Assembly: GCA_043738565.1 (NCBI GenBank) | Contig: JAYUGA010000323.1 | Span: 12,895-76,894 of the forward strand | Reading direction: 5' to 3' | Length of the DNA: 64,000 nt | Source: Rhodobacterales bacterium | GTDB lineage: Bacteria > Pseudomonadota > Alphaproteobacteria > Rhodobacterales > Rhodobacteraceae | In this document: positions 1 to 24,289 of the stretch, piece by piece | Layout: every line of letters begins with the position of its first letter | How positions within the stretch are numbered: position 1 is the stretch's first letter | Translations under genes and position numbers: made by a program | The notes under the pieces: model-generated | What the model saw: only the letters and a program-made list of their open reading frames with translations | Databases searched by the model: none | What the model was told of the DNA's origin: nothing

Positions 1-281
1 AGGGCATGGTGATCTACTACCCCGATTTCTCGACCCATCGCGGGCAACCGGGGGTCTATGTGCAGGATATCTATGTGGAACCTGCGGCGCGGGGTTCGGG
101 CATGGCGCAACGCCTGCTGGCCGCCGTCCTGCAGCACCAGACCTGGGGTGCCCGCTACCTGACCCTCGGCGTCAGCCCCGACAACCTTGTGGCCAACCGC
201 TTTTACGCGCGACTTGGCTTTCGCCATCGCGGTTATGATTTTCTGATCCTCGACGGCGACCACTTGAAAGCCCTGCCATGA
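1..281 (+). CDS. GNAT-family N-acetyltransferase, C-terminal part (5' end lies outside the window)
   Basis: ORF 6..281. It has the acetyl-CoA pocket-like VEPAARGSGMAQRLL and the C-terminal NRFYARLGF typical of the GNAT fold. Its stop overlaps the next start (ATGA at 278-281). Confidence 0.7.
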   Translation, partial: GMVIYYPDFSTHRGQPGVYVQDIYVEPAARGSGMAQRLLAAVLQHQTWGARYLTLGVSPDNLVANRFYARLGFRHRGYDFLILDGDHLKALP

Positions 282-1288: not shown

Positions 1289-2202
1289 TCAAAGGCTCCT
1301 CCGCCCCCCTGATCGGCGTTGGCCTGATGCTGCTGGCGATGGCGATCCTACCCGGCATCGACGTGATCGCCAAATACATGGGCCGCGGCGGCATGCCGGT
1401 GATGGAGCTGGTCTGGGCACGGCTGACCTTTGGCGCGGTGCTGACCGCCCCTTTCGCCCTTCGCCACAAAGGCTTGCCGGGTCTGATCCCCGACCGGCCG
1501 TTCTATCACGCGCTCAGGGCCAGCCTGCTGATTTCCGCCGCTTTCACCTTCTTCCTGTCGCTCAAATTCCTGCCCATCGCCGACGCCCTGGCGATCTTCT
1601 TCGTGCAGCCTCTGGTGGTCACCGCGCTGTCGCCGCTGATCCTGCACGAACAGGTCGGGCCGCGCCGCTGGGCTGCCGTCTGTGTCGGCTTCATTGGCAC
1701 CCTGATCATAATCCGCCCCGGCTTTGGCACGCTGAACCCCGGCAGCCTGCTGGCCTTGGCCGCCGGCATCTGTTTGGCGCTGTATTTCCTGATGACACGG
1801 CGGATTTCGGGGCAGCAAGCCGCCGTCCTGACCACGTTTCACACCAATGTCATCGGCGGGCTGATCGCCTCTGCCTTGGTGCTGCCGGTCTGGAAAATGC
1901 CAACTCCGGTCGAGTGGCTTTTGCTGATGGCATTGGCCGCCATCGCCAGCCTTGGCCACTATTTCATCGTCCGCGCTTATGATCATGCCGAGGCGTCGCT
2001 GCTGGCACCCTTGGCCTATACCGAGATGGTGACATCGACGATTCTGGGCCTGATCTTCTTTGGCGACTTCCCCGATGGCTGGACCTTTGTCGGCGTCGCC
2101 ATCCTGATCGCCAGCGCCATCTATATCTCGATCCGGGAACGGGCCAAGGGGCTGGCGGGACTGTCGGCCACCGCCGTTGCCACCCGGGAACTGTCGGATT
2201 GA
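1279..2202 (+). CDS. DMT-superfamily (EamA-type) transporter
   Basis: Start taken at the internal ATG 1279 (MGVIKGSS...). The Arg/Pro-rich N-terminal extension of ORF 1078..2202 looks non-coding. The protein is highly hydrophobic with two EamA-like halves. Confidence 0.8.
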   Translation: MGVIKGSSAPLIGVGLMLLAMAILPGIDVIAKYMGRGGMPVMELVWARLTFGAVLTAPFALRHKGLPGLIPDRPFYHALRASLLISAAFTFFLSLKFLPIADALAIFFVQPLVVTALSPLILHEQVGPRRWAAVCVGFIGTLIIIRPGFGTLNPGSLLALAAGICLALYFLMTRRISGQQAAVLTTFHTNVIGGLIASALVLPVWKMPTPVEWLLLMALAAIASLGHYFIVRAYDHAEASLLAPLAYTEMVTSTILGLIFFGDFPDGWTFVGVAILIASAIYISIRERAKGLAGLSATAVATRELSD

Positions 2203-2777
2203 CCGGGTGGCAAAGCCTGATTGGCGGGCTGGCGGGCGCTTTGTCTCTGGCGGGATTCGGGCTGTATGTCTGGTCCACCCTTTTCGGCCGGACCAGACCG
2301 AACCGCGCGACATGGTGGGTGCTGACGCTGGTCGGCGTGATGATCGCGTCCAGCTATTTCGCCGCAGGGGCGCGCAACACGATCTGGATTCCAGTGAGTT
2401 ACGTCGCAGGCCCCTTGATCGTGGCGCTGCTGTCGCTGAAATACGGTGAGGGCGAATGGGAGGCTCTGGACCTCTATTGCGTGATTGCCGCCGTGATCAG
2501 CGCCTTGGTCTGGCTGGTGTTCAACGCTCCGTTGGCCACTTTGCTGATCAACATCGGGATGGATTTCATCGCCTTGATCCCGACGATCAAGAAATCCTGG
2601 GCACGCCCCGATGGCGAGGACCGCACCGCCTGGGCCTTGGAAACCGCCGCCTGTGCGCTGAATGTGGTGGCGGTGGAAAGCTGGGTCTGGGGCATCGCGC
2701 TGTATCCCGTCTACCTGGTGCTGATGAACGGCGCGATCACGTTGCTGCTGTATCGCGGCAGGTTCGTCGCGCGGTAG
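2199..2777 (+). CDS. Hypothetical polytopic membrane protein
   Basis: 192-aa hydrophobic ORF with GC3-rich codons. A TTG start overlaps the upstream stop (TTGA). The start is uncertain and no family was recognised. Confidence 0.5.
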   Translation: MTGWQSLIGGLAGALSLAGFGLYVWSTLFGRTRPNRATWWVLTLVGVMIASSYFAAGARNTIWIPVSYVAGPLIVALLSLKYGEGEWEALDLYCVIAAVISALVWLVFNAPLATLLINIGMDFIALIPTIKKSWARPDGEDRTAWALETAACALNVVAVESWVWGIALYPVYLVLMNGAITLLLYRGRFVAR

Positions 2778-3039
2778 GTGAGATTTTGCGGCGTCGATCG
2801 CCATTCATGAACGCCTGGTAAATTGCAGAATCTTAACCCATTGATTTCATGTTGTTTCGAAAAACGTCCAGAACTGGACACCCTTACCCCCCATCCCCCG
2901 GCAACCCATTCCGCGTCACCTGACGCATAGGGCCGAGCACCGGTGCAGCCCCGGACCTGCGGCCGCAGCGGGTCGGACGAGGCCATTTCATTGTGGTGGC
3001 CGCTGACGGAGGGGCCGGGAACGAAATGGGCTTGCAGGG

Positions 3040-4829
3040 TCACGACTTGGCTCCGGCAAATGCCTGCTCCAGAAATGCTGCGGTACGGGTCAGATAGGCA
3101 GCGACATTGCTGCGACGAAAGACGCCGTGGCCCTCGTCTTCGAACAGCAGCAGCTCATGGGGAATGCCCGCCGCCGTCAGTTCCCGCACGGCGGTGTGGG
3201 TATTTTCCGGCCCGACATTGTTGTCGGCAAGACCGTGGACGATCATCAGATGACCCTAGATCTGGTGGATGAAATTGCCGGGGCCGGCATTGGCATATTT
3301 CTCGGGGAACTGTTCCGGCGTGCCACCCATCATCTCTTCCGAATAGGCGCGGCCGTGCGGCATTTCGGTCGCGTGATAGTCGATGTCCAACCGGTACATG
3401 CCGCACATAGGAATGGCGGCATTCACCAGATCGGAATGGCGGGTGATGGCAAACCAACTGGAAAAGTCGCCATAGGAATTGCCCGCAACCGCAATCATTC
3501 CCTTTGTAGCATAACCTTGCGCGATGGCCGCCTCGATACCGGCGCGGATATCTGCCTGTTCACGTCCACCCCAGCCATCTGCCTTGACCGCCTCGCGCCA
3601 AGCAGACCCAAAACCGGTCGAGCCGCGATAGTTGAGGTCCAGCACCGTGTAACCCGCTTGCACCCAAAAGCCGATCTTGGGGTTGACCCAATCCTCGGAA
3701 TGCCAGGTCAAGCCGCCGTGAACATAAGCGATAAAGCCTTTCGACGGGCCTGCGGGTTCGTAAGGCAAACCCTGACACTTCGACCCATCGACCGATTCCC
3801 AACAGAATTCCCGACCCGCCCGATGCTGCCGCGTTGATTGTGCTGCTGTCCATAGTGGCACCCACGACCCATCCGGCATGACCCGCAGCAAGTCGTGCGG
3901 GGCATCTCCGTCATAGGCCTCGGCGATCCCGCCACCATCTGGCAAAGACGCGTGGGGCAGCAGGGTTCGCCGCCCCGACATGTTGGGAAAGCCACCGGAT
4001 ACAACCGTATGTGAATGATCGTGCGCAATGCGAATAAGTTCGCCGTTATGCCCCGGCAGAACCTCGTGAGGCAGCAGAACCGGCTCGCCTCCCCGCCATT
4101 CAACCGCGCCTGTGGAGATCGTCAAAACCCCAAGTAATCGGATCGTTCGCCGTCTGTGATAAAGGCGATGCAATCCTCGGAAATCCACGCGCCACGGGTG
4201 TTGTTCGTGTCGCCAAGGCACAGAACTTCCCGCAGATTTCTACCTTCCAGGTTGATCAACCATAGCTGCGTCGACCCTGGCGAACGATCGTTCATGTTTA
4301 AAAGAATACCTTGACCGGATGGCGACAGGCTGGGCGGGCGGTCGAAGAAATGCTGGGTATTTGTCAGACATTTCCTGGCGCCCGTCGTCAGATCTTGCAG
4401 CCAGACCATGCCGCCGTCGATGACCTGTTCGTTAACGTAATCGTAATCGGTGCAGAAGATGATTGCGCGCCCGTTTCGGGTCAGCTTGCCGCCATTGACA
4501 TAGTGGGTGTGCTGTTTGGGGGTCAGCAGGTGCAAACGGTTTCCGACCCGGCGATCCAGCAGCAGCAAGTGGTCATGTTCGCTGGCGTGACGAGATTGGG
4601 CAAGGATCAGAACCATGCCGTCCGCCGAAACATCGCGGATCAGGTGATGGTCGGTCCCCAAGCTCAGTTGTTCGGGCGGGCCGCTGCCATCGGTGCGGAC
4701 GGCGTAGACCTCGTCGACTTCATTCAGGCCCCAAGCGCAGAAAAAAGCCCATTTGCCGTCCGCCGAGGCGTGGATGCTGGACAGTTGCGGCAGGGCGACC
4801 CAGGCTTGAGCTAGTTTGTGAACGTTCAT
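3040..4829 (-). pseudogene. S9 (prolyl oligopeptidase family) serine peptidase, disrupted
   Basis: The N-terminal propeller-like part is in the ORF 4122..5591 frame, starting at MNVHKLAQAW. The hydrolase domain has the nucleophile elbow GNSYG, then MIVHGLADNNV and EDEGHG. A frameshift lies at C-run 4128-4131 and an in-frame TAG at 3256-3258. Confidence 0.75.
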
Positions 4830-5801
4830 TCCAGTCTCGACGAAATGGTAGGCGGCTTGTCTGCCACCCAAGTCGCGCAATTCCGGGCGTTCGCCACGAC
4901 AGCGGGCTTGGGCTGCAGGGCAACGGCTGGCGAAGACGCAGCCGTGCGGTGGGTTCAGAACCGAGGGCAACTCGCCTTGCAAGGATTGGCCGATCCGGCC
5001 CTTTTCGCGTTTGGGATCGGGTTCCGGGACAGCGAGCATCAGGGCTTTGGAATAGGGATGCAGGGGCTTGGCGTAAAAGGCGTCGTGCGGAGCGGATTCG
5101 ACCACCCGGCCAAGGCACATCAACATGACGTCATGGCTGATGTGGCGCACGACGGCGAGGTTGTGCGAGATGAAAACGAGGCCGAGGCCATGCTGATCTT
5201 GCAGGTCCATCAACAGGTTAACCACCTGCGCCTGAATGGACACGCCCAGCGCCGAAACCGGTTCTTCGCAAAGGATCGGCCTGGGGCGCCCGATGATGGC
5301 GCGGGCGATGCCGACCCGTTGTGCCTGACCTCCGGACAGTTCGTGGGCGTAACGCTGCGCGAAATCGGCGGAAAGACCGACAAGACGCAGCGCCTCAATG
5401 GCCTGGTTGTTGAGTATGGCGCGGCTAAGGCCGGGTTCTAAGGTGGCAAGGGGGCGCGAGACGATGCGACCGAAGGTCATTCGCGGGTCGAGGGCGGCAA
5501 CAGGGCCCTGGAAGATGATCTGCATTTCCGAACGGCGTTTGCGCAGGGTGCCCTCCGGCATTGCGGCCATATCCTCGCCTTGCCACAACACGCTGCCGGA
5601 GGTTGGTTTGATCTAGCGCAGCAGGGCGCGGCCAAGAGTGGATTTGCCGCAGCCGCTTTCGCCGGCGACACCCAGTGTGCGGCCCGGTTCCAGCGACAGG
5701 TTGTTATCATGGACGATGGTCAAGATCCGTGGACGGGCGAAAATGCCCGCACCGGCAATGGGATAGCCGACTTCCAGATGCCGGGCTTGCAGCAGCGTCA
5801 T
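4830..5801 (-). pseudogene. Peptide ABC transporter ATP-binding protein (DppF/OppF-like), disrupted
   Basis: Walker A GESGCGKST and signature LSGGQAQR are present. An in-frame TAG at 5613-5615 interrupts ALLR*IKPTSG. The Walker B region reads ILCEEPVSALG, where family members normally have ADEPxSALD. No in-frame stop precedes the peptidase ATG at 4829. Confidence 0.8.
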
Positions 5802-6769
5802 GCGGCACCTGTCAGATGGCAGACGGCTTGGCGGCCCGGCGCGATGGTTTTGAGAGGTGGCTGGGTAATCTCGCAAGCGGCGATTTTCACCGTGCAGCGC
5901 GGAGCAAAGGGGCAGCCTGGCAGCATCGCGCCACCGGATCGTGGGGTGCCCGGGGTGGTGCCGAGGCGTGGCGTCAGGGCATTTGCAAGGCGGGGTGTGG
6001 CGGCGAGCAGGCCTTGCGAATGGGGATGCGCGGGGTTTGCGAACAATTGTTCGGCGCCGGCTTCCTCGATGATCCGCCCACCATACACAACGATCACCCG
6101 GTCGCACAGGTGAGTGACGACGTCGAGGTCGTGGGTTACAAGAATGATGGCAGTGTCGATTTCGCGGCCCAATTCGGCCATCAGGTCAAGCACTTGCGCC
6201 TGAGTGGCAATGTCCAGCGCGGTGGTGGGTTCGTCAGCCAAGAGCAGCGCGGGGCGGGCCAGCAAGGCCATTGCGATCATCACGCTCTGCCGCATGCCGC
6301 CGGAGAATTCGTGGGGGTAATGGCGGGCGCGGCGGGCGGCATCAGGGATTCTGACGCGGTCAAGCATGGCAGTGGCGGCCTTCCATGCTTCGGTTTTCGA
6401 CAGGCTTTTGTGAACGCGCAAGCCTTCCGCCATCTGGTCGCCGACCCGCATATAGGGGTTGAGCGAGGTCATCGGGTCTTGGAAAATCATCGACAGGGTG
6501 ACGCCGCGCAATCGGTCCAATGCGGCGGGCGGCAGGGCCGGCAGGTCCTGGCGCTGGAAATTGGCCGTCCCTGTCGCGGTGCCGTTGGACGCCAAAAGGC
6601 CCATCAGGCTGAACAAAATCTGGCTTTTGCCCGAGCCGCTTTCGCCGACAATGCCCGGAACCTCGCCCGGTGCCACGTCGAAACTCACCCGGTCAACGGC
6701 GGTCATCGCCCCGACCGGCAGGCGAAAGCTGACCTTGAGGTCGCGGACGGACAAGAGGCTATCGGTCAT
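5798..6769 (-). CDS. Peptide ABC transporter ATP-binding protein (DppD/OppD-like), apparently intact
   Basis: Walker A GESGSGKS, signature FSGGMRQ, Walker B LLLADEPTTALD and a C-terminal CPFAPRC motif. The stop overlaps the downstream start (ATGA). Confidence 0.85.
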   Translation of the reverse strand: MTDSLLSVRDLKVSFRLPVGAMTAVDRVSFDVAPGEVPGIVGESGSGKSQILFSLMGLLASNGTATGTANFQRQDLPALPPAALDRLRGVTLSMIFQDPMTSLNPYMRVGDQMAEGLRVHKSLSKTEAWKAATAMLDRVRIPDAARRARHYPHEFSGGMRQSVMIAMALLARPALLLADEPTTALDIATQAQVLDLMAELGREIDTAIILVTHDLDVVTHLCDRVIVVYGGRIIEEAGAEQLFANPAHPHSQGLLAATPRLANALTPRLGTTPGTPRSGGAMLPGCPFAPRCTVKIAACEITQPPLKTIAPGRQAVCHLTGAA

Positions 6770-7625
6770 TGGGGTCAAAGGCGTCCCTAAGACCATCGGC
6801 GATGAAATTGAGGCAGAACAGGACCATAGCCAGCAAGATACCCGGCAGCAGCAGCAAGCGCAGGTCGGTGTCCATCGCAGAAGTGCCAGTCTGGATCAGG
6901 TTGCCCCAACTGGCCTGCGGTTCCTTGATGCCGATGCCGAGGAAGCTCAGGAAACTCTCGGACAGGATCAGTTCGGGCACCAGCAGCGAGCCATAGACGA
7001 TGACCACGCTCGCGCAGTTCGGCACGATATGTTCCAGCACGATCTGCCACGGCGTCATGCCAGCGGCCCGCGCCGCCTCGACAAATTCGCGCTTGGATAG
7101 GCTTTCGGCCTGGGCGCGGACGATGACAGCGGGGGTGAGCCACAGGATGAAGGCGATGGCGGCGAACAAGGCCACGTTGCCGCCGCCGAACAGCAGGCTG
7201 AGCAGGATCACCAAAATGACATAGGGAAACCCCTACAGCAATTCGACCGTGCGCATCATCAACCGGTCGGTGCGGCCGCCGGCATAACCCGCCACGGCCC
7301 CACATAACACGCCGATCAAGCCAGCGGTAACGGCGCCGAGAAAGCCAATGGTGAGCGAGACGCGGCCACCCTCCAGCACCCGTACCAAGAGATCGCGGCC
7401 AAAATCATGGGTTCCGAACGGGTGGCGAGACGCGAAGTCGATGGGTGCGCCGATATAGTCGAAATCGGCATCCCAGCCGCTGAAGGGAAAGGCAAAGGGG
7501 CCAAAGAAGCAGGCCAATGCGATCAGGGCCAGCACGGTCACGGAAACCATCGCAAGGCGGTTCTGGGCAAAGCGACGCAGTTGGAGCTGGAAGGTGGAAA
7601 GGGACCGGGATGCCAGATCAACCAT
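6759..7625 (-). pseudogene. Peptide ABC transporter permease (DppC/OppC-like), disrupted
   Basis: Two co-linear ORFs (7233..7646 and 6759..7214) lie in the same frame. They are separated only by TAG at 7233-7235, giving RTVELL*GFPYVILVILL. Confidence 0.8.
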
Positions 7626-8541
7626 GACCGCGCATCTTAGGGTCAAGCCTGCCGCGCACCAGATCGGTCAGGATATTGAAAAGGATCAACAAAGCGCCGT
7701 ACAGCAGCGTGATCCCCATCACCGGCGGATAGTCGCGGTTCAGGGCGGCATCTACGAAATGGCGGCCAATGCCGGGGACGGCAAAGATCGTCTCGATCAG
7801 GACCGAGCCGGTGATGATCCCCGCTGTGGCCGGCCCAAGATAGGCGATCACCGGCAGCAATACGCCCCTCAGCGTGTGCATGACCAGCGTGCGGCGTGCT
7901 CCGATCCCCTTGGCGCGGGCGGTGCGGACGTAGGTTTCCCGCATCGTGTCGATCATCGAGTCACGGGTCAGGCGTGAGATATAGGCGATGTTGGGCAGGC
8001 TGAGCACCAGCGCCGGCATGACCAAAGACCGCCAGCCCGGATCAGAGCCGCCGACCGGCAGTCAGTTCAGTTTCAGCGCAAAGATGACCTGACACAATGG
8101 CCCGATCACAAAGATCGGCACCGCAACCCCGATGACGCCGACCACCCCGGCCAGATAATCGGTGGCGGTATTGCGGCGCAGCGCCCCGGCAATCCCCAAG
8201 CCAATGCCGACCAGTGCGGCGACGACAATCGCCAAAAGACCGATGGTCAGCGAATAGGGCAAGCCAGAAAGGATCAGATCGCTGACCAAATAATCGCGGA
8301 ACCTTGTCGAGGGGCCAAAGTCGAAATGCAGCAACCCCCAGACATAGCGAGTGAATTGCTGCCAGACCGGTTCATCCAGATGGAAGGCCGCCTTGATGTT
8401 CGCCAGCACCTCCGGCGAGATTTTGCGGGTCTTGGAAAACGGCCCGCCGGGCGCCAGGCGCATGCCAAAGAAGGACAAAGTGACCAGCGCCAGCAGTGTC
8501 AGCCCGCCCTCCCACAGCCGCTTTCCGACGAATCTCGGCAA
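7618..8541 (-). pseudogene. Peptide ABC transporter permease (DppB/OppB-like), disrupted
   Basis: ORFs 8062..8541 and 7618..8025 lie in the same frame. TGA at 8062-8064 sits where family members have Trp (FALKLN*LPVGG). Confidence 0.8.
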
Positions 8542-8611
8542 CCTGAACCTTTCATCTGTCCCTAAATATCCCGGGGAGTCCGGCGGGCTGGCCCCCCGGC
8601 CTATCCACCAG

Positions 8612-10192
8612 CTAGTCCAGCGTCAGGAATTGCGAATTGTTGTAGCCCGCCGGCGAGTTTGACCAGCCATGCACCGTGGGTTTGACCAGATGGCGGTACG
8701 GGAACGGCGAGATCGGGCAAAGATATTCGTCCAGAAGGATCTTTTCGGCCTTGGCCAGCGCCTCATACCGCGCCGGGCGGCCGGCGATCCTGGACGCCAC
8801 ATCCATCGCCGCATCGTATTCGGGTTTCACCCAGTTATACCCCGGCTCGGCAGAGGGGCGCTGGTAGGACAAAAAGGTTTCCGGCCCCGGGTAATCGCCG
8901 ACAAGGTCGTCGGAAAACACATCCCAACCGCCGGCATAGAATGCATCGAGCCACGCCTTGCGCTCCATCGGCTCGTTGCTGGCCTCAGACCCCCAGCACC
9001 TTTTTCCACATCAGCGCCACGCCCTGCGCCCGCCGGGTGGCATCTTCAGACACGGTGGAGACGATGTTGATTTTCAACGGGTTATCCGGCCCGTATCCAG
9101 CTTTGGCATACAACTCCTTCGCCAATGCCTCCCGCCCGGCCTGGCTCATCGTCGCTTCGGCGATCTGCGGTCCGTGGTAATCGGCATCAAAGCCACCGGC
9201 AAAGGAATAGGTCGGGATCGAGCCGCCCTTGACGATCTTGCCCTCCAGCACATCGCGGTCGATCACCAGCGACAAGGCCCGGCGCAGATCGGGGTTCTTC
9301 ATCGGCTCCTGGGTCAGGTTGAAAGAATAATACAGGATTTCGGTCGATGGCCCGATCTGGACCTGATCCGGAACCCGCGCTTACAGCGCCTCGATCTGGT
9401 TCAAGGGAATGTCATAGGTGATGTCGATCTCACCGGCCTGATAGCGTTTCAACTCGGTCGCCACGTTTTAAGTCACCAGGTGTCTGACGAAGGGAATTTT
9501 GACATTGGCGGCGTCCCAGTAATTGGGGTTCCGCGCCAGCAGCACCTGGCCTTGCGGCACGATTTCCTTGATGATATCGGCTCCGTTAGACACCACCTGC
9601 GCCGGGTCGATGAACACAGCCGCGCCGTATTGTCTGAAACTGGGCGAGTGCAGCGGAGCGATCTGATAGGCGCCCATTAGTTGCAGCATGTCAGGTGCCG
9701 GGTTCAAAAGCTGGATGACCACAGTGCGCGGGTCAGGTTCTGTCACCCCCAGCGTGCTGACATCCGTGACCGTGCCATCGATCAGCTCCTTGGCGCCTTT
9801 GACCTGAATGACGGAGGAGAAATAATAGCCCTTCTCGGATGCGGTATCCTTGTTCATCGTCCGCAGCACCGAATTGACGAAATCCTGCGCCACCAGAGGA
9901 TCGCCGTTCGACCATTTCAGCCCATCGCGCAGGTGGAACGTGTAGGTCAGCCCGTCGGCGCTGACATCCCACTTTTCGGCGGCCCCGGCATGACATTGCC
10001 GGTGCCGTCAAAATTGATCAGCCCCTCATAGACATCCTGCTGAATCCACGCCGCCGCATCGAAATTGACCTGCGGGTCCAGCGATGACCATTCCGAACCG
10101 ACCCCACGATCCAGCGTGTCATCGGTAAAGACCGGTGCTGCGAGGCCAAGGATCAAAGCCAAGCCCAAACTTGCCAAACGCATCTTCTTCAC
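8612..10192 (-). pseudogene. Family-5 peptide/nickel substrate-binding protein (DppA/OppA-like), disrupted
   Basis: Four co-linear ORF pieces. The signal peptide is (VKK)MRLASLGLALILGLAAPVF. Lesions are a frameshift at C-run 9983-9986, TAA at 9468-9470, TAA at 9381-9383 and a 1-nt insertion near 8987 that creates TGA at 8985-8987. Confidence 0.8.
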
Positions 10193-10218
10193 GGCAAGCT
10201 CCCCGTTCTTGTTATCTC

Positions 10219-11335
10219 TCAGTCTGACAGCAGATCGTCGGTGCGGACAACCTTTTCGCCTGCAACATGCGCCAGCGATTGCCCGCGCAGGCAGAAGCGC
10301 CAGAGTTCGGTGCGAAACAGCATGCCCGCGACCGAGGCCGTGACCGAAAGACAGCGGCGGCTGACCGGATCGGTGACATGGGCCAGGGTCTGCCCCGCCT
10401 TGACCTGATCGCCAGGCCGCGCCAGCCATGACACCACACCGCCCTGCGGCGCATAAACCTCATCCGCGCCGCCCAGCGGCAGGTGCAGGGCGTCCGGATG
10501 GGCCGGTTTGTCGATCCAGCCCCGCACCGCGCGACGGCGGACAGAAAGGTCATCAGATTGGCGGCATCCTGAGCGGCGGTGGCATCGTCCACGTCAAACT
10601 GGCCGCGATATTCCAGCGTGCTGGAAAGGCAGCCGGAGGGGATCGGGAACGGTCGCCATAACGGGTGCGCAGGTGCAGCCACGGCACGGTATGGGCCTCG
10701 TCAAAGGCGTTGCCGCCCGAATCATCCTCGATCAGCGCCAGTTTGGCCCCGACAGCGCGGCACAAAAGTTCGGTGATCTCGGGGCGGGTGTTGGAGGCGT
10801 AGAGGTGCATGACCGCGAAATGGTCGCAATGCAGATCCAGCACGTAATCGGCATCGCAGGACCAGTTGAGCAAGGCAATCTGCAATTCCTGCACATCGGT
10901 GCGCGGGTCAAGCTCCGCCAATGCCCCCCGAAAGGCGCGGCGGATCAGATGCAGGTTTTCCTCTGCCGACCTGGTCAGAACACCGTCCAACGCGTCACCG
11001 ACCAGCTTGGCCAATTCGGGATAAGAGCGGTGGAAGTTTTGCAGACCTTCGGCGTCCTGCCGCCCAAGGGGGCGCTGATGGGTCCATTGCGCCAGGCCGA
11101 TCGGGTTGGCGGCGGGCACCACCAGCACCTCGCCCAGCACTCCGCCATAGCTTTCGGCCTGATCCAAGAGCGTCATCAGATGCTGCAATACCAGAACACC
11201 CGGCATCTCGTCGGCATGCAGACCGGCTTGCAGATAGACCTTTGGCCCCGAGCCTGCCGCACCATAGCGATACAGCGTCAGTTCGCGCCGCGTTCCGGCT
11301 GAGGCACCTGTCATCGGGCAGGTTTCAATCCGCAT
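10219..11335 (-). pseudogene. Succinylglutamate desuccinylase/aspartoacylase-family (M14-like) hydrolase, disrupted
   Basis: The N-terminal 220 aa are intact (YLQAGLHADEMPG, LDLHCD). The C-terminal part continues in two other frames (ORFs 10212..10682 and 10219..10527). Frameshifts lie near 10650 and near 10530. Confidence 0.7.
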
Positions 11336-11414
11336 CGAAATTATCCAGCTGGCTAATTCGCTAGAGGCCAGCTTGATCAGGGCCTGTCGATTCCGTCAAG
11401 CATAAGCACACGCG

Positions 11415-13073
11415 CTAAAGCCAAAGCTGATCGGGGTCAGGCAGCGGGATCGCCTCCGGCAATTCGCGGGTGTATTCCGCCCGAGGCGTGGCAAAAAGCT
11501 GCGCTGTGGCTGCGTTTTCGACGATCCGCCCCTGTTGCAGCACCAGAACGCGGGAGCAAAGGCGGCGGATCACGCTCAGGTCATGGCTGATGAAAGCAAG
11601 GGTGAGGCCTAGGTCTTTGACCAGCCCTTCCAGCAGGTTCAGCACCTGCGCCTGCGAAGATACGTCCAGCCCCGACACAATCTCATCGGCCAGAATGAAT
11701 TCCGGTTTGAGTGCGATGGCCCGCGCAATCCCGATGCGCTGCCGCTGACCGCCGGACAGTTCGTGCGGATAGCGTTGGGCGAAACTGCGTGACAGGCCAA
11801 CGTGATCCAGCGCCTCGGCTGCCCGTGCGGGAGAATGGTCAAGGCCCAGCACCTGGAGCGGTCCGGCGATGATCCGGGCAACCCGGTGGCGCGGGTTCAG
11901 CGACGACATCGGGTCTTGAAAGATCATCTGAAACCGCCGCCGCAGCGGGCGCAACTGATCCTCTGGCAGATGGGTGATGTCCCGTCCGTCAAAAGTGATA
12001 CGGCCGCCGGTCGGCTCCAACAGCCGCAGCAAGGCCCGCCCGAGCGTCGATTTGCCGGAGCCAGAGCCGCCGACGATGCCCAGAACGTCACCTTTGGCGA
12101 TGGTGAAACTGAGTCCCTTTGGAATTTCAATGCGCGGGGCGGCACCCAGCACCGGCTTGCGCGTCATGTCGGGCAGGGACAGGTGGAGGTCCTTGACCAC
12201 GTAGAGATCGGCCATGCCAGGCCGCGTCCGCCGCCGCGACCTGCATCTGCACCGCCTGCACCACGGCCTCGGGCACCGGCAGCAGACTGGCGTCCGGATC
12301 GGTGAATTTCGGTGTCGCAGTCAGCAGTGCGCGGGAATAGGGGTTTCAGGGACGCGGAAGAAGGCGCGAACCGGGGCGTCTTCGACCACAAGCCCGCCAT
12401 ACAGCACGGTCAGGTTCTGGCAGACCTTGGACACCACACCAAGGTCGTGGGTTACAAACAGCTGTGCCGTATTGCGCCGCGCCTGCATCCCGGTGATCAG
12501 CCTAAAAATCTGCTTCTGCACCGTCACATTCAGCGCGGTCGCCGGTTCGCCCGCGATGATCAGCTTCGGTTCCGCCGCAAAGGCCGAGGCGATCAGAATG
12601 CGCTGCCGCATCCGACCCGACAGTTCGTGCGGATAGCACCGCAGCACCCGCTCCGCCCCCTCGATCTGCACCGCCGCCAGCAGTTCCCGCGCCCGCTCCT
12701 CGGCCCTTGCGCGGGTCCAGCCCAGAATATCCACCAAGCGGTCGGTGATCTGCGGGCCTATCCGACGCGAGGGCTTCAACGCAGTCAGCGGGTCTTGCGG
12801 GATCAGCGCCGCCAAGGCCTCGATCTTTTGGCGGCGCTGACCCGGCGGCTTGGTCATCAGATCCACCCCGTCCAGCAGGATTTCGCCCGACATCACCTCC
12901 ACCGTATGGGGCAACGTTCCCAGAACAGCCTTGCCGATCATCGACTTGCCGGCACCGCTTTCGCCGGCCAGACTGCGGACCTCGCCCGGCTCCACCTCCA
13001 GCGAAACTGCGCGCGGCAGGCGCTCGCCGCCCTTCAGCCGCACTGACAGGTTGCGGACGCTCAGTAAGCTCAT
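11415..13073 (-). pseudogene. Duplicated-domain peptide ABC ATPase (GsiA/YejF-like architecture), disrupted
   Basis: The N-domain is ORF 12321..13175 from MSLLSVRNL. The C-domain is ORF 11415..12215 in the same frame. The conserved HPYSRALL...linker is readable only in a shifted frame between about 12345 and about 12220, and TGA lies at 12321-12323. The N-domain signature reads LSGRMRQR and its Walker B reads LIIAGEPATALN, so the usual Gly and Asp are lost. Confidence 0.65.
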
Positions 13074-13921
13074 CGCAGCACCGGGTCGTCGCGGTCCTTC
13101 AACCCCTCGCCCAACTGGCCAAAGGCCAGCACTGTCAGGAACAGGGTGGCCAGCGGGAAAATCAGCACCCACCACGCCTGAAGCACGCTGATCCGTCCTT
13201 CCGCAATCATGCCGCCCCAGGTCGGGTCGTCAGTGGCAATCGACAGGTTCACGAAGGACAATATCGCCTCGACAATCAACGCGATACCCATTTCCAGCGG
13301 CAGCAACACCACGATGGTCGGCAGGACATCGGGCAGGATTTCAACCAGCATCGTGCCGATCCGCGACCGCCCCGCGACCTGCGCCGAGGCTACATAATCC
13401 ATCACGCCCTGCCCCATCGCCTCTGCCCGGATCACCCTGGCAAACCGGGTCCAGTCGATGATGACGATGGCGGAGACGATCGAAAACAACCCCGGCCCCA
13501 GCACCGCGATCAGCAAGATCGAGAACAGCACCGGCGGAAACGTCATCCAGATGTCGATCAGCCGCGAGATCAGCACATCGACCCAGCCGCGCAGGAACCC
13601 CGCCAGCAGGCCCAAGGTCGCGCCGACAAGGCAGGTCAGCGTTCCGGCGATCAAAGCCGCCTCCAGCGCGATCCTTGCGCCAAAAATGATCCGGCTCAGC
13701 ACATCGCGGCCCGGACTGTCGGTGCCCAGCAGAAACGACGGGTCCGCGCCACGCACCCAGAACGGCGGCAAGCGGCCCGAGAGCAGGTCTAGCGCCAAGG
13801 GGTCTTTCGGCGCGACCCAAGGCACCGCCACAGCGACCAAGGCGACGAACGCCAGCCACAACACCGACAACCACAACCGTGACCCCGCGCCCCGCCTGAC
13901 CTGCGTGCGCCCAGCAGCCAT
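13070..13921 (-). CDS. Peptide ABC transporter permease (DppC-like), apparently intact
   Basis: 283-aa ORF with typical binding-protein-dependent transport features (SRIIFGARIAL, EAA-like loop region). The stop overlaps the downstream start (ATGA at 13070-13073). Confidence 0.85.
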   Translation of the reverse strand: MAAGRTQVRRGAGSRLWLSVLWLAFVALVAVAVPWVAPKDPLALDLLSGRLPPFWVRGADPSFLLGTDSPGRDVLSRIIFGARIALEAALIAGTLTCLVGATLGLLAGFLRGWVDVLISRLIDIWMTFPPVLFSILLIAVLGPGLFSIVSAIVIIDWTRFARVIRAEAMGQGVMDYVASAQVAGRSRIGTMLVEILPDVLPTIVVLLPLEMGIALIVEAILSFVNLSIATDDPTWGGMIAEGRISVLQAWWVLIFPLATLFLTVLAFGQLGEGLKDRDDPVLR

Positions 13922-14909
13922 GCCGCAACCTCGGGTTCAGCGCGGCATAGCACAGGTCCACCGCCAAATTGACCCCGGTGAAGATCACCGCGAACAGGAT
14001 CACGATACCCTGGATCAGTGGCAGATCGCGGTTGACCGCCGCATCAATCGCCATGTTCCCCAGCCCTTCATAGGAAAACAGCCGCTCGATGATCACCGTG
14101 CCACCGATCAGAAAGGTGAACTGCACCCCGACCAGGGTAAGCGTCGGCAGCACGGCATTCGGCAATGCCTCGCGCAGGATCACATGGGTTTCGCCGTAAC
14201 CCTTGGTGCTCGCCAGGGTGACATAATCCAGATGCATCACCTCATTCAAACTTTGCTTCAAAAAGCTGGCTGATGATCGCGGCAAAAGGGATCGCGAGTG
14301 CCAAAGCCGACGTGAACATGTGGCTCAGAAGGTCGCGCGTCAGGTCGAACCGGAGCCGCAGGACACTTGCCACCAGATAGAAATTGGTGGTGAATGGCAG
14401 GGTCAGCAAGGGCGTCACCCGCCCGGAAATCTGAAACACCGGCACCAGCACGCCAAACCGCAGGATCAGCGCGGCCCCCACAGGAAATCGGGCACCGACA
14501 GCGCCATGCCGTTGCCCACGTCAATCGCCGCCTCGACCCGCGTGCCGCGCAGCCGGGTTCCGGTCAGCGGCGCCGCACCGCCCAGAGCCACGGCCATCCC
14601 CAACGCCATGACCGACAACTCCAGAGTCGCAGACAAATGGTCCAGCACCAGCGCCAGCACCGGCTGACGGTTGGTGATCGACACCCCGCAATCGCCGCGC
14701 AACACCCCCGCTCCCCAGATCAGGAACTGCGAGGGATCGGCTTGTCCAACCCGTACAGCGCCGTCAGCCGCGCCACATCGGCCTCCGTCGCCTGCGGCGG
14801 CAGCATCATCGCAATCGGATTGCCCGGCACCACCCGGATCACGAAAAACACGATCACCTCCACACCGAACAGCGTGACCGCTGTTGTGGCCAGACGCAAC
14901 AGGAGGCAT
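13922..14909 (-). pseudogene. Peptide ABC transporter permease (DppB-like), heavily disrupted
   Basis: The family-typical sequence can be followed only by switching frames at four points: about 14905, G-run 14733-14735, C-run 14475-14479 and A-run 14260-14264. After ...AALNPRLRHG no stop codon is present, and the frame runs on through the next gene. Confidence 0.7.
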
Positions 14910-14933
14910 GCACCAGCCTAATCTCTTCCCCCG

Positions 14934-14987
14934 TTCATTTCGGCAAAAATACTCCACAGTGGGTCCGGGGGGTGTGAAACCCCCCGG
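14934..14987 (+). repeat. Intergenic repeat family, diverged copy (box plus 9-bp G/C hairpin)
   Basis: Box TTCATTTCGGCAAAAATACTCC, then CCGGGGGGT-GTGAA-ACCCCCCGG (14965-14987). Confidence 0.6.
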
Positions 14988-14995
14988 CCTTTCCA

Positions 14996-16009
14996 TCAAG
15001 CCCGCTTCACCAGATGCGGCAACGGCGCCCCCGAGGCATGCGGCGTCACCACCACGCCCGTCGCCGACAGGATCGGCTGCACATATTGCAACAGCGGGAT
15101 CACATTGGCGTTTTCGGCGATGTAGCGGTCCACATCCTTCCGGCCCTGAATCCGCTTGGCCTCATCCGCCTCACCCCACAGGGGGCCGATCTTGTCGATC
15201 AGATCCTGGCTGTCCCATACCGAATGGGGGCTGGGGCCGAACATCGCAAACCCGGTGGAAGTCGTTGGATCGCGCACCGAATTGCCCCAGTTGTAGAACG
15301 CCGTCGGGGCCAGTCTGTTTGCCGCGCGCAGTTCATAATGTTTGGCGATTTCATAGGTTTCGATCCTCGCCTCGATGCCGACCTTGCGCCACAGGCCGAC
15401 GATGGCCTGGATCATCTCGTAATCCTTCGGCTTGAAACCCTTGGTGGTCTGGATGGTGAACTTGACAGGTTTATCAAACGAGTAGCCCGAAGCGGCCAGC
15501 AGTTTCACCGCCGCATCCGGGTCATAGGGCGTCTTGATCGTCGGATCATAGGCGTCATAATCCGGGGTCTCCAGCGTATCAATCGGCACGCCATAGCCGG
15601 ACAGCAGACGGGTGATAATGGTCTGCTTGTCGATGGCGGCGACAGCGGCATGGCGGACGTTGGGGTCAAGCATGACTTCGATATCATTGAGGAAAATCAT
15701 GCCGATGTCAGAAATCGGATGGGCGATGCCGTTGAACGTGCCCTTCAGGCGGTCGTCTTCCTCATAGGGCATTTCCAGCGTGACATGGCTGTTGCCGGAT
15801 TCCACTTCGGCGACCCACGCCGCAGGATCGGTGACGAATTTTATCGTCACCGTGCCTAACTCCGGCTTGCCGCCCCAGTACTTCGCATTTGCTTGCAAAC
15901 GCACGTATGCGCCGCGTTCGAACTTCTCGACTTTGTAGGGGCCGGTGCCGATGGGGGCTGCCTCGGAGCCCTCTGCCCCGACCTTTTCGCAATAGGCTTT
16001 CGGATGAAT
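14996..16009 (-). pseudogene. Family-5 substrate-binding protein, 5'-truncated remnant
   Basis: The frame of ORF 14996..15904 extends upstream to TGA at 16010-16012. It starts mid-protein (IHPKAYCEKVGAEGSEAAPIGTGPYKVEKFERG...), so it has no signal peptide or N-terminal lobe. Confidence 0.75.
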
Positions 16010-16260
16010 TCAAGGCCATGCCTGATCAGCTCCGCTGAATATGCCTTGAAAAACGCCGATCCGGCAAACAGCGACAGGTTCATCGCGGCCCAGTCACGGC
16101 GGAAGCCGGGCAAAGTGTATTCGCCGGTCTTGACCGCGCCGCCCGCCACTGGCGCCTGTTCGAACACCCCGACGCGCCAGCCCCTCGCGGCCAGATGCGG
16201 GGCTGCGACCAGCGTGTTGTGGTCGGCTCCGATGAAAACCGCGTCAAAGCTGGTTGGCAT
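16010..16260 (-). pseudogene. FAD/NAD(P)-dependent oxidoreductase (CrtI/phytoene-desaturase-like), N-terminal remnant only
   Basis: About the first 85 aa of ORF 15856..16260 look like a Rossmann N-terminus (DAVFIGADHNTLVAAPHLAARGWRVGVFEQAPVAGG). The dinucleotide motif is degraded to GADHNT. The reading then runs into out-of-frame binding-protein sequence. Confidence 0.55.
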
Positions 16261-16280
16261 TTATCGCTCCGGTTGACGTT

Positions 16281-16296
16281 GGGATATTTGCAAATG
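16281..16296 (-). repeat. Partial core of the intergenic repeat box
   Basis: GGGATATTTGCAAATG shares GGGATATTTGC with the reverse complement of the box. It overlaps the palindrome AAATGCATTT (16292-16301). Confidence 0.35.
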
Positions 16297-16407
16297 CATT
16301 TAATTCTGTCTAGTCTGATTCAGGCGGGTGAGGCCAAAGTGGCTGTCTTCTTTGCGTCTTGCCCACGTCTTGCTTGCGTGAAGACAAATGGCGACAGGGA
16401 AAATGAC

Positions 16408-17199
16408 ATGACGTCTGCAACGATGCTGGCCGATCTGGCCGGAATGCTGGCCTCGGGTGGGGTCGAGGTGGTGGACCTTACCGGGGTTCTGGGGCCGGAC
16501 ACGCCGCTGCTGAAACTGCCGCCCGACTTTGCCCGCGACACCCCGGCGATCGAAATTCATCGCATCAGCGAATATGACAAGGACGGCCCGTTCTGGGCGT
16601 GGAACTGGCTGAAGGTCGGTGAACATTCGGGGACGCATTTCGACGCGCCGCACCACTGGATCACCGGCCGCGACTACGCCGACGGCTATACCGACACTTT
16701 GCCGGTGCAGCGGCTGATCGCCCCGGTCAACGTGCTGGATTTCTCCAAGGAATGTGCGGCCAACGCGGATTTCCTGCTGACCATCGCGCATGTGAAGGCG
16801 TGGGAGGCCGGGCATGGTGCGATCAGGGCTGGCGAATGGGTTGTTTTGCGCTCGGACTGGGATGCGCGTTCGCACGACGCGGCACTGTTCCTGAACGCCA
16901 ACGACACCGGGCCGCATACGCCGGGGCCGACCGCCGAGGTGGTGGAATATCTGATCGGGCAGGGAATTGTCGGCTGGGGCAGCCAGTGCATCGGCACCGA
17001 TGCGGGGCAAGCCGGTGGCATGAACCCGCCGTTCCCGGCGCACAACCTTTTGCACAAGAACAACCGTTACGGGCTGGCGTCTCTGGCCAACCTCGACAAA
17101 CTGCCGCCCAGGGGCGCGATCCTGATTGCGGCACCGCTCAAGATCAAAAACGGCACCGGGTCGCCGATCCGGGCGCTGGCTTTGGTGCCGAGGGGCTAG
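16408..17199 (+). CDS. Cyclase-family protein (kynurenine formamidase-like fold)
   Basis: Motif HSGTHFDAPHH. Start taken at internal ATG 16408 (MTSATMLADL). Confidence 0.85.
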   Translation: MTSATMLADLAGMLASGGVEVVDLTGVLGPDTPLLKLPPDFARDTPAIEIHRISEYDKDGPFWAWNWLKVGEHSGTHFDAPHHWITGRDYADGYTDTLPVQRLIAPVNVLDFSKECAANADFLLTIAHVKAWEAGHGAIRAGEWVVLRSDWDARSHDAALFLNANDTGPHTPGPTAEVVEYLIGQGIVGWGSQCIGTDAGQAGGMNPPFPAHNLLHKNNRYGLASLANLDKLPPRGAILIAAPLKIKNGTGSPIRALALVPRG

Positions 17200-17202
17200 G
17201 AT

Positions 17203-17673
17203 ATGCCTGACGGCGCCACCAATTATCCACGCCTGGGCGAGATCGGCTTGGGCAATTACGCGCCCTATCTGATGAACCGGATCATGGGGCGCTATAATGC
17301 CAGCTTGCGGGCCGAAATGGCCGAACTGGGGTTGAGCACGCCGAAGATGCGGGCATTGGCGCTGCTGTCGGTGGTGGAAGGCCCGCTGATCGGGGAATTG
17401 TCGGTCTATACGGTAGTGGAGGCTTCGACGTTGAGCCGCGCCTTGGACCAGTTGCAGGCCGATGGGCTGGTGCGGCGCGAGGTGGATGCGGCCGACAGCC
17501 GGGCGGTGCGGGTCTTTGCCACCGATGCGGGGCGGGCGACGTTCGAGACCCTGTGGCCGCATATGGCCGCCGGGCAGGCGCGGATGTTTCGCGGGATCCC
17601 GGCGGAGGAACGCAGCGCCTTTGTCGGCACCTTGCAGAAGATGCTGGCGAATATCCGGAGGCATGACATCTGA
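17203..17673 (+). CDS. MarR-family transcriptional regulator
   Basis: 156 aa with a winged-helix region (LSTPKMRALALL...EASTLSRALDQLQADGLVRR). The stop overlaps the iorA start (TGATG). Confidence 0.85.
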   Translation: MPDGATNYPRLGEIGLGNYAPYLMNRIMGRYNASLRAEMAELGLSTPKMRALALLSVVEGPLIGELSVYTVVEASTLSRALDQLQADGLVRREVDAADSRAVRVFATDAGRATFETLWPHMAAGQARMFRGIPAEERSAFVGTLQKMLANIRRHDI

Positions 17674-19817
17674 TGGCAGAACGTTCATTCAAGGCGGAGG
17701 TCGAACATCTGCGGCTGGGGGAGGGCGGCACCTTCACCGGCGAGGGGATTCTGGCGCTGACCAAGGCTTTGCTGGAAAATTGCGTCGGCTATGTCGGCGG
17801 CTATCAGGGCGCGCCGATCAGCCATCTGATGGATGTGCTGGCAGATGCGCAGGAACTTTTGGCGGAACTCGGGGTGCGGTTCGAGGCCAATGCCAATGAG
17901 GCGGCGGCGGCGGCGATGCTGGCCGCTTCGGTGCATTATCCGATCCGGGGTGCGGTGACGTTCAAAGGGCCGGTCGGGGTCAATGTCGCCTCGGACGCTT
18001 TGGCGAACCTCGCGTCGTCGGGTGTCACCGGCGGCGCTTTGGTGATTGTCGGCGAGGATTACGGCGAAGGCTCGTCGATCATGCAGGAGCGCAGCCATGC
18101 CTTTGCGATGAAGTCGCAGTTCTGGCTGTTGGATCCACGGCCGAATTTGCCCAGTATTGTGAAGGCGGTCGGCGACAGTTTTGCGCTGTCAGAGGCGACG
18201 AATACCCCGGTCATGCTGATGGTCCGCATCCGGTCGTGCCATGTCACCGGGCAGTTCGCCACCCGTGACAACCAGCGGCCCAAGCTGTCGGTCAAGGATG
18301 CGCTGAAGGCGCCGCGCTCGGATTTCAACCGGGTTGTCTTGCCGCCGATGTCCTATGTCCACGAACAGGACAAGGTGAAAAACCGCTGGCCGGCGGCGCA
18401 GGCCTTCATCAGGGACCACCGGCTGAATGAGGTGTTCGGGCCGGACGCCCGCGTCGGCATCGTCGTGCAGGGCGGCATGTACAACGGCACCATCCGCGCC
18501 CTGCAACGGCTGGGTCTGGCGGATATCTACGGCGAGACGCTGGTGCCGCTCTATGTGCTGAACGTCACCTATCCGCTGGTGCCGGACGAGTTTCTGGCCT
18601 TTGCGGCGGGCAAGGACCATGTTCTGGTGATCGAGGAAGGCCAGCCGGAGTTCATCGAACAGGCGCTGGGGTCCATGCTGTACCGGGCCGAGGGCAGCAC
18701 CAGACTGCACGGCAAGGGCGCGTTGCCGATGGCGGGAGAATATACCGGAACGGTGATGTTCCAGGGCATCGAGGCTTTCCTGAAAGCCGCCGCACCGGGG
18801 ATGCTGGCCGCGACCGTCCGAGCGCCGAATGAAGACAAGCCGCAAATCCCCGACCTGAGCAAAACCGTACCGATCCGCCCGCCGGGGTTCTGCACCGGCT
18901 GCCCGGAGCGGCCGATCTTTGCCGCGATGAAGCTGGTGGAACAGGAACTGGGCAAGCACCAGATCGCCGCTGACATCGGCTGTCACCTGTTCGCGGCACT
19001 GCCGCCGTTTGAAATCGGTGGGGCGACGATGGGCTATGGCCTTGGGCCCGCCGCCAATGGGGCGTTTGATGGCGGCGGCGAACGCAGGCCGATTGCGATC
19101 ATCGGCGATGGCGGGTTCTGGCATAACGGGCTGTCGTCCAGTTTCACCAACATGGCGTTCAACAAATCCGACGGTGTCGCCATCGTGGTCGACAACTACT
19201 ATTCCGCCGCGACCGGTGGCCAGGACAACATGTCGTCCCGCGCCAACAATGCCACCAAATCGACGAAAAACCCGATCTCCAAGGCGCTGAAAGGCGTGGG
19301 GATCGACTGGGTCCGGCAGATTGACCACACTTATGACGTGGGCAAGATGCGCGACACGCTGCGTGAGGCTTTGACGACAAAGACGCCGGGGCCGAAGGTG
19401 ATTGTGGCGTCATCGGAATGCATGCTGAACAAGCAGCGCCGGGAAAAGCCGTTGCGCGCCCGCGCGATCAAGGAAGGTCGTCGGGTCGAGGTGCCGCGCT
19501 TTGGTGTCGATGAAGACATCTGCACCGGCGATCACGCCTGCATCCGGCTGTCGGGTTGCCCCTCGCTCAGTTTGAAAAAGCTGGAGGATCCGTTGCGCGA
19601 TGACCCGGTGGCCTCGATCGACCAAAGTTGCGTCGGCTGCGGCAATTGTGGCGAGGTTGCCGATGCCGCAATCCTGTGCCCCAGCTTTTACCGCGCCGAT
19701 GTGGTCCACAACCCCTCGGCTTGGGAACAGCGATTGGCGGCATTCCGCGCCCGCATCTTCCGCTGGCTGCAAACCCGCCGCGCGGCGAAACGCCTGTCGT
19801 TCGAGGGGGCACCATGA
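17673..19817 (+). CDS. iorA: Indolepyruvate/2-oxoacid:ferredoxin oxidoreductase, alpha subunit
   Basis: 714 aa. It has a TPP-binding GDGGFWHNG region and two Cys clusters (CTGDHACIRLSGCP, CVGCGNCGEV). Confidence 0.8.
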   Translation: MAERSFKAEVEHLRLGEGGTFTGEGILALTKALLENCVGYVGGYQGAPISHLMDVLADAQELLAELGVRFEANANEAAAAAMLAASVHYPIRGAVTFKGPVGVNVASDALANLASSGVTGGALVIVGEDYGEGSSIMQERSHAFAMKSQFWLLDPRPNLPSIVKAVGDSFALSEATNTPVMLMVRIRSCHVTGQFATRDNQRPKLSVKDALKAPRSDFNRVVLPPMSYVHEQDKVKNRWPAAQAFIRDHRLNEVFGPDARVGIVVQGGMYNGTIRALQRLGLADIYGETLVPLYVLNVTYPLVPDEFLAFAAGKDHVLVIEEGQPEFIEQALGSMLYRAEGSTRLHGKGALPMAGEYTGTVMFQGIEAFLKAAAPGMLAATVRAPNEDKPQIPDLSKTVPIRPPGFCTGCPERPIFAAMKLVEQELGKHQIAADIGCHLFAALPPFEIGGATMGYGLGPAANGAFDGGGERRPIAIIGDGGFWHNGLSSSFTNMAFNKSDGVAIVVDNYYSAATGGQDNMSSRANNATKSTKNPISKALKGVGIDWVRQIDHTYDVGKMRDTLREALTTKTPGPKVIVASSECMLNKQRREKPLRARAIKEGRRVEVPRFGVDEDICTGDHACIRLSGCPSLSLKKLEDPLRDDPVASIDQSCVGCGNCGEVADAAILCPSFYRADVVHNPSAWEQRLAAFRARIFRWLQTRRAAKRLSFEGAP

Positions 19818-21397: not shown

Positions 21398-21445
21398 CGT
21401 TTTCAATGCATTAGAACAGTGTCCAGATCTGGACGCTGGCAAAAC

Positions 21446-21937: not shown

Positions 21938-22074
21938 GCCGTCTCCGATCTTAGCGTGAGATAGAACACTCCCGCCCCGGTTTCCAGCGACCCGCGAGGT
22001 TTACGAAGGCGGCGTCAGGCCTTAGTCTGCACCAGCCGCCAAAACCAAGGCGCACCCCGAATCCCAGAGGCCGC

Positions 22075-23814: not shown

Positions 23815-23821
23815 GGGCAAG

Positions 23822-24253: not shown

Positions 24254-24289
24254 ACGAAATTTTAGATAAATTGGCCTAAAAGGCGAGGC

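Follow-up and report, generated by a model that had tools for sequence, protein, structure and literature searches.

This report concerns a 64,000-nucleotide stretch of DNA (“the window”) from a Rhodobacterales bacterium (assembly GCA_043738565.1, contig JAYUGA010000323.1, positions 12,895 to 76,894), in which an array of genes for two peptide-type ATP-binding cassette (ABC) importers and several enzymes is interrupted almost throughout. Comparison with the intact array of a close relative makes it highly probable that this block is a genuine run of pseudogenes, which would have decayed in place after the whole array was released from purifying selection in an uncultured Paracoccaceae lineage. 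Three features expected of in-place pseudogenes are found here. First, the block retains homology and synteny with the intact genes of the nearest relative, locus L002. Second, its genes carry disabling lesions. Third, those lesions are present in the DNA of independent contigs. All of the coding remnants, from 2915 to 16260, lie on the minus strand and are split into short open reading frames (ORFs).

The intact array and its interrupted counterpart

Relatives were found by scanning the AstE-like fragment of the window against species-representative genomes, which yielded 80 loci (loci and contigs are numbered here with the prefix L). The nearest, L002, is on a Rhodobacterales metagenome-assembled genome (MAG) contig, JANYFE010000002.1; in blastn blocks, it has 78% nucleotide identity to the window over 16003–2915 and 86–88% in the right flank. 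The L002 array is uninterrupted and consists of 14 genes on the same strand (g2–g15); for g15 and the 13 intact syntenic genes, amino-acid identity to the window is 75–92%. We identified the L002 proteins with Pfam and NCBIfam, and the window fragments with precomputed Pfam matches.

In L002, g2 encodes a CrtI-family FAD oxidoreductase. Next come the genes of one importer, with a family-5 binding protein (g3, SBP2), two permeases (g4 and g5) and two ATPases (g6 and g7), and the gene for an AstE/AspA-family hydrolase that is succinylglutamate desuccinylase/aspartoacylase-like (g8). The second, AstE-linked importer consists of an OppA-like binding protein (g9, SBP1), OppB-like and OppC-like permeases (g10 and g11) and two ATPases (g12 and g13). 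The array ends with an S9 (prolyl-oligopeptidase family) peptidase (g14) and a 430-amino-acid, amidase-like gene of the DMFA2_C family (g15). Both importers combine a family-5 binding protein (SBP_bac_5) with two BPD_transp_1 permeases, one of them with OppC_N, and two ABC_tran ATPases. The oligo_HPY domain was detected in ATPases g12 and g13, such that all of the permease and ATPase parts of an Opp/Dpp-type importer are found in one cluster for the AstE-linked system; in g6 and g7, no oligo_HPY domain was detected. For the array proteins of both importers, every NCBIfam equivalog score was under its cutoff. The domain make-up of each system is that of the Opp/Dpp (peptide/nickel, PepT-family) ABC importers but, unlike those, both systems in the window are predicted to be non-functional.

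We called lesions with a frameshift-aware protein-to-DNA alignment of 13 L002 proteins against the window, and refined the calls by local nucleotide alignments and by codon comparison with 10 relatives per gene. Alignment to close-relative orthologues had been proposed in an earlier, sequence-only reading of this DNA, and it confirmed the lesions. The tally given in that reading was reproduced, with 6 nonsense codons, 11 single-base indels, 2 lost stop codons and 1 deletion (Table 1), except that one of the indels, a +1 at 10217, proved to be intergenic, located after the stop codon of AstE on one side and the start codon of SBP1 on the other. The 10 indels inside coding sequence comprise 8 deletions and 2 insertions. 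Each of the nonsense codons replaces a residue conserved in 10 relatives, and both stop codons were lost by substitution. The deletion removes 1,849 bp (L002 positions 3473–5321) and leaves the first 86 codons of g2 joined directly to g3, which resumes at codon 179. We find 10 of the 13 genes to be broken, not the 11 of 13 reported earlier, with permease g5 and ATPases g7 and g12 keeping full-length frames. The limits originally drawn around the block, 3040–16260, do contain the lesions, but the damage reaches further, to a stump of g15 at one end and to the loss of an additional gene, g0, beyond the other.

Two apparent lesions were rejected. The TGA that looks like a “stop at codon 4” of g5 is upstream of the true start codon, and also occurs in the intact locus L001. 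A “frameshift” in the FAD oxidoreductase remnant came from forcing a global alignment and is an artefact.

In the two closest relatives, the orthologues show no interruption, in L002 throughout and in L001 as far as its short contig reaches; the same is true of dozens of more distant loci, which make up most of the other relatives. Therefore, the lesions in the window are derived. This observation also bears on the idea that the fragments are functional split genes, or that programmed frameshifting or stop-codon readthrough restores their products. The sequence-only reading had itself pointed out that functional split genes with identical interruptions might turn up in relatives; instead, L002 throughout, and L001 where its contig extends, have single uninterrupted genes at every site. 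We consider split genes or recoding exceedingly improbable, since nothing beyond the survival of long fragments speaks for them, as many as four lesions occur in one gene, two genes have been cut short by deletions, and no slippery or repeat tract is found at the indels. A programmed ribosomal frameshift was rejected for similar reasons: relatives have no interruption at any of the sites, genes have several lesions, and there is no repeat tract at the indels. A phase-variable (contingency) locus was likewise rejected, because most indels adjoin no homopolymer run and the longest run beside any of the others is 5 nt. The ~20 short “genes” called in the block are best treated as pieces of genes, and none of them should enter a reconstruction of the metabolism of this MAG as a transporter or peptidase.

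Table 1. Predicted pseudogenes, remnants and retained frames of the array, associated losses, and independent contigs of the same population (all positions are those of the window)
Feature	Positions	Strand	Details
g15 stump, first ~45 codons of the 430-aa DMFA2_C-family gene	2915–3043	−	tblastn: L002 g15 residues 1–48 only
S9 peptidase pseudogene (g14)	3043–4829	−	1-nt deletion ~4136; TAG 3256–3258; same sequence in L085, L098, L099
OppF-like ATPase pseudogene (g13)	4833–5822	−	TAG 5613–5615; stop lost, TGA to GGA ~4830, with in-frame run into the S9 gene
OppD-like ATPase (g12), frame intact	5798–6796	−	conserved-site replacements: 24 window-specific vs 5 L002-specific
OppC-like permease pseudogene (g11)	6762–7661	−	TAG 7233–7235 in place of a conserved Tyr
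OppB-like permease pseudogene (g10)	7621–8562	−	TGA 8062–8064 in place of an invariant Trp
OppA-like SBP1 pseudogene (g9)	8615–10190	−	~9982 (−1); ~8987 (+1); TAA 9468–9470; TAA 9381–9383
AstE/AspA-family hydrolase pseudogene (g8)	10222–11335	−	1-nt deletions ~10648 and ~10532; 260-aa fragment on three other contigs
ATPase (g7), frame intact in the window	11415–12215	−	frameshift-aware alignment; candidate IS5-family insertion site 11608–11613 inside
ATPase pseudogene (g6)	12211–13073	−	1-nt deletion ~12344; stop lost, TGA to CGA ~12208; reproduced in L090, L091
Permease (g5), frame intact	13070–13921	−	frameshift-aware alignment
Permease pseudogene (g4)	13917–14922	−	deletions ~14904, 14731, 14474; insertion 14262; identical in L081, L082
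SBP2 remnant (g3), C-terminal 335 codons	14996–16003	−	N-terminal 178 codons deleted
1,849-bp deletion junction	16003–16004		blastn blocks vs L002; same junction in L081, L082
CrtI-family FAD oxidoreductase remnant (g2), N-terminal ~86 codons	16004–16260	−	orthologue on L092 intact over the 385 aa present, to contig end
g0 absence site (517-aa CrtI-family FAD oxidoreductase, paralogue of g2)	17199–17203		between cyclase and MarR in L002 and L092; cleanly missing in the window
Glutathione S-transferase pseudogene, outside the block	26472–27165	−	5-nt tandem duplication (CGGAC) ~26600; 1-nt deletion ~26512
Contig L081 (ERZ27314315)	13555–27673		6 mismatches, 0 gaps
Contig L082 (ERZ28573553)	13555–18372		1 mismatch, 0 gaps
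Contigs L085 / L097 (ERZ27314315)	1–11688		1–2 mismatches, 0 gaps
Contig L098 (ERZ28573553)	1202–11613		1 mismatch, 0 gaps
Contig L086 (ERZ28573534)	9908–11518		1 mismatch, 0 gaps
Contig L090 (ERZ28573553)	11608–13593		1 mismatch, 0 gaps
Contig L091 (Logan assembly SRR23617139)	11928–13573		0 mismatches, 0 gaps
Contig L099 (Logan assembly SRR23617225)	718–3709		0 mismatches, 0 gaps

Independent assemblies of the same population

Contigs of the same population were found by exact-product look-ups; they come from Illumina metagenome assemblies of at least four samples, in at least two datasets, made with different pipelines. Together, these contigs tile the window from 1 to 27673 at 99.95–100% identity, and every lesion of the block is reproduced in them. 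Single-nucleotide differences are scattered among the contigs, meaning that they represent separate assemblies and not copies of one. Consensus error is effectively excluded as the source of the lesions by this zero-gap agreement of assembled contigs, and the earlier argument that poor sequence does not account for the lesions stands on firmer ground as a result.

Assembly or consensus errors in the MAG deserve consideration because the window comes from an uncultured population, and because such errors do appear elsewhere in our set: three relatives from nanopore-derived MAGs (L071, L077 and L026) have error-like frameshifts in most genes of the locus, unlike the localised lesions of the window, and we did not count them as decayed loci. 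For the window, we judge errors of this kind very improbable. All of the lesions reappear, without gaps, in short-read assemblies made independently with different pipelines and from several samples; six arose by substitution to a stop codon, the indels are outside long homopolymers, and the lesions are localised.

A search of 5.8e9 proteins with the SBP2 remnant returned a sole match above 91% identity, a truncated 302-amino-acid product; no intact SBP2 allele of this population at >91% identity is on record among those proteins. No match was obtained when the exact products of g7, g5 and the HDAC gene were looked up; for g7 and g5, this is because the other assemblies break at ~11.6 kb and 13.56 kb. 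The population was not found in two pattern scans of Joint Genome Institute (JGI) metagenomes. We infer a glacier-fed-stream origin from record names only (“BUSI22-1”, and “GFS_” for relatives); it was not confirmed in the supplements of Busi et al. 2022 (PMC9021309).

The break at ~11.6 kb coincides with a candidate insertion in g7. Two contigs of ERZ28573553, L098 (contig positions 10408–10460) and L090 (1982–2037), leave the window from opposite sides at the CCTAGG of 11608–11613. Both continue past CCTAGG with the same 8-nt terminus, GTCAGGAC, and ~50 nt of each end is seen. One of the two tails is 82–86% identical to the termini of IS5-family transposase elements annotated on 174 plasmids, most of them of Rhodobacterales origin. 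In these respects, the candidate insertion resembles IS5-family elements that target CTAG-type sites. The junctions suggest that an IS5-family insertion sequence (IS) interrupts the otherwise intact g7 in part of the population, i.e., that decay may be continuing, as had been proposed before; the insertion would also be the reason why the assemblies break at 11.6 kb.

Contigs of three assemblies also end within 39 nt of one another at 13555–13593 (13555 is the first position of L081 and L082, and the last positions of L091 and L090 are 13573 and 13593, respectively). No foreign tail was seen on any contig at this break, and the window lacks a repeat that could account for it. A search for repeats within the block found weak ABC-motif paralogy only, and did not explain the contig breaks.

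Concentration, mode and age of the lesions

The point lesions are strongly concentrated, with 18 of 20 within 21% of the window (P = 7e-11 for such a concentration by chance). As a control, the same alignment was applied to 11 flanking genes, with the closest relatives L092 and L093 as references (their IorA is 95% and 93% identical, respectively). Ten of the 11 are clean: cyclase, MarR, IorA, IorB, flavin reductase, DnaX, YbaB, RecR, TrcR and RNase T2. The eleventh is a glutathione S-transferase gene with two lesions near its 3′ end, such that its final ~45 codons are shifted to another frame and the ORF continues too far, to 26296; L081 has the same sequence. The earlier claim of localised damage between intact flanks, IorA, IorB and DnaX included, is upheld with the exception of this frameshifted gene. 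No further breaks were seen in gene calls and Pfam matches across 21–52 kb, in Pfam coverage across 41–64 kb, or in a scan of third-position GC phase, and gene lengths are normal in the 10 kb that adjoins the window on the left.

Two genes near the block have been lost without a trace of coding remnant. One is g0, which, with g2, makes two lost FAD oxidoreductases; the cyclase between them is intact. The other encodes a 545-amino-acid, serralysin-like, secreted M10 protease with RTX repeats, which is positioned between TrcR and RecR in L006, L008, L010, L077 and L093, and adjoins RecR in L003 and L012. In the window, the gap between recR and the TrcR-family gene (24887–24923) contains neither the M10 protease gene nor a remnant of it. 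Taken with the glutathione S-transferase pseudogene, these absences amount to further losses within 30 kb, and they raise the question of whether the block is the most visible part of a drift-driven reduction of the whole genome that is not specific to peptide use. We think this improbable given the 10 clean flanking genes, the lack of frame switches elsewhere in the window, the normal gene lengths to its left and the concentration of lesions in the block.

Within the block, the 18 disabling point lesions over 12 gene bodies fit a single homogeneous Poisson process (1.4 per kb; chi-square P = 0.32). Four genes are lesion-free, against a Poisson expectation of 2.9. Because the number of lesion-free genes is as expected, an intact frame need not be a functional one, and the frames of g5, g7 and g12 are presumably chance survivors. 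The course of the decay can be read from the lesions. Disabling point mutations accumulated at a uniform rate, to ~1.4 per kb, with single-base deletions exceeding insertions 8 to 2; larger deletions have started to take away DNA at both ends of the array, and an IS5-family element may be entering one of the remaining ORFs in part of the population.

Amino-acid replacements at conserved sites provide a second measure of constraint. With outgroups ranked by similarity to L002, the block has 145 window-specific and 72 L002-specific replacements (P = 8e-7), a test we judge to be biased, as choosing outgroups by their likeness to L002 can inflate the asymmetry. Measured against the consensus of 41–54 far outgroups, 9.3% of conserved sites differ in the window, compared with 5.6% in L002 and 3.3–7.6% in the remaining intact lineages; the rate excess is smaller but persists. 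By contrast, flanking IorA is symmetric (11 vs 13 replacements). Three-taxon counts with L001 and L092 could not be polarised and are not used as evidence. The excess in the block and not in IorA, together with the uninterrupted orthologues in relatives, agrees with the earlier proposal that the decay took place under relaxed selection.

Several observations weigh against a lapse of selection on the array as a whole, or against its connection to peptide use. The outgroup bias just described is one. In addition, the acceleration is modest and was considered to be within the upper range of the intact lineages, and it is not seen in AstE or ATPase g7. Just left of the window, a Peptidase_M19 dipeptidase gene is intact. 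Lastly, the lost genes are not all related to peptides, given that FAD oxidoreductases and a glutathione S-transferase are among them.

Three estimates made by standard codon arithmetic are in agreement on the age of the decay: the excess of replacements (~3.4% of conserved sites), the nonsense codons (6 in ~4,300 codons) and the indels (~10 in 13 kb). On this basis, neutral divergence since constraint lapsed would be ~1–1.5%.

The window and L002 also differ in third-position GC. In L002, block genes (6400–19600) have values of 0.60–0.72 vs 0.74–0.81 for flank genes; in the window, values are 0.72–0.85 in block and flank alike. Recombination or transfer in one of the two lineages is a possible source of this contrast and of the contrast in nucleotide identity between block and flank. 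A known plasmid island was considered and rejected: a plasmid search with the whole block gave distant ABC-transporter similarity alone, and the flanking genes dnaX, recR and ybaB are chromosomal.

Later stages of the locus and the cause of its loss

The AstE-linked importer has independently decayed or disappeared in several relatives. In L008 (JAYSQA010000249.1, 11144–14589), SBP1 has two nonsense codons (TAG 11438 and TAA 11519) and each permease has one frameshift (12906 and 14283). These positions differ from those of the lesions in the window, and a Logan assembly of another run contains the same two nonsense codons. L009 (6613–10072) has nothing but remnants, in several frames, of SBP1, the two permeases and the S9 peptidase, at about half of the original length, and AstE and g15 on either side are intact. 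In L005 and L010, the importer is gone and the S9 gene directly follows AstE; in L011, g15 does so. The neighbouring genes are intact in all three. A single-gene neighbor-joining tree, which has no support values, places the importer losses on about five separate branches beside lineages with an intact locus.

Recurrent loss of one importer within one clade could mean that the loss was positively selected. Knockout of an Opp-type importer might be advantageous, by blocking the entry of peptide antibiotics or by saving cost, and the rest of the co-transcribed array would then become neutral. The independent breakage or deletion in about five lineages is the observation that favors such a scenario, although relaxed selection in a shared habitat predicts recurrence equally well. 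Moreover, the uniform Poisson distribution of lesions reveals no privileged first hit, and the lesions are in the binding protein and permeases in L008 but in almost everything in the window. We therefore regard positive selection for the loss as quite unlikely.

Under the favored reading, decay in place after selection lapsed, the cause may be that the need for this peptide-scavenging route was lost; the nearby secreted M10 protease is gone too. The link to peptide scavenging had been drawn before, and it is consistent with the damage to both importers and the S9 peptidase, though less so with that to two FAD oxidoreductases and the glutathione S-transferase. Because non-peptide genes are among the losses, the functional rationale is one that we infer. 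More tentatively still, the window and its relatives might form a natural time series of pseudogene extinction, from intact loci, through point-lesioned ones (the window and L008) and a remnant (L009), to deletion (L005, L010 and L011), that reflects a perhaps habitat-linked, possibly selected, abandonment of protease and peptide import in cold freshwater Paracoccaceae; we think this somewhat doubtful. If true, the series could serve to measure the spectrum of neutral mutations and the half-life of pseudogenes in uncultivated bacteria.

Bacterial pseudogenes are known to pass from inactivation, through neutral decay with a deletional bias, to removal (Kuo and Ochman 2010 for Salmonella, PMC2916853; PMC6054270 for reductive genomes; PMC9336565 for Pseudofinder). 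Like unitary bacterial pseudogenes and decaying operons, the block combines homology and synteny to intact genes with frameshifts, nonsense codons, truncations, a deletion bias and lineage-specific lesions, and the same progression of point lesions, remnants and clean deletion is seen across the window and its relatives. Unlike in Salmonella or symbionts, the host is a free-living, uncultured freshwater member of the Paracoccaceae that is not host-restricted. Also unlike in the usual cases, ten adjacent genes have been hit together and have kept most of their length, with several stages of decay side by side in related lineages. The block is a new, well-documented instance of known pseudogene decay, and involves no new mechanism. 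Its value is as a small, useful data set for pseudogene dynamics, in which a whole multi-operon array of a free-living bacterium would have become neutral at once, with a divergence clock of ~1–1.5%, an 8:2 deletion bias, a putative segregating IS and later stages in relatives.

Two other regions of the window differ from their surroundings. At 2199–2915, ~0.7 kb of unrelated DNA replaces most of g15 and has no counterpart in the 80 relative loci; it encodes a predicted membrane protein of 192 amino acids, with no Pfam match and no homologue in any relative locus. At the opposite end of the window, from ~59000 to 64000, GC falls to 0.58–0.59, and the genes include a C-5 cytosine DNA methylase (62155–63300), a GIY-YIG-domain protein (61383–62135) and several ORFs without a Pfam match. 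This region is possibly a restriction-modification or mobile island.

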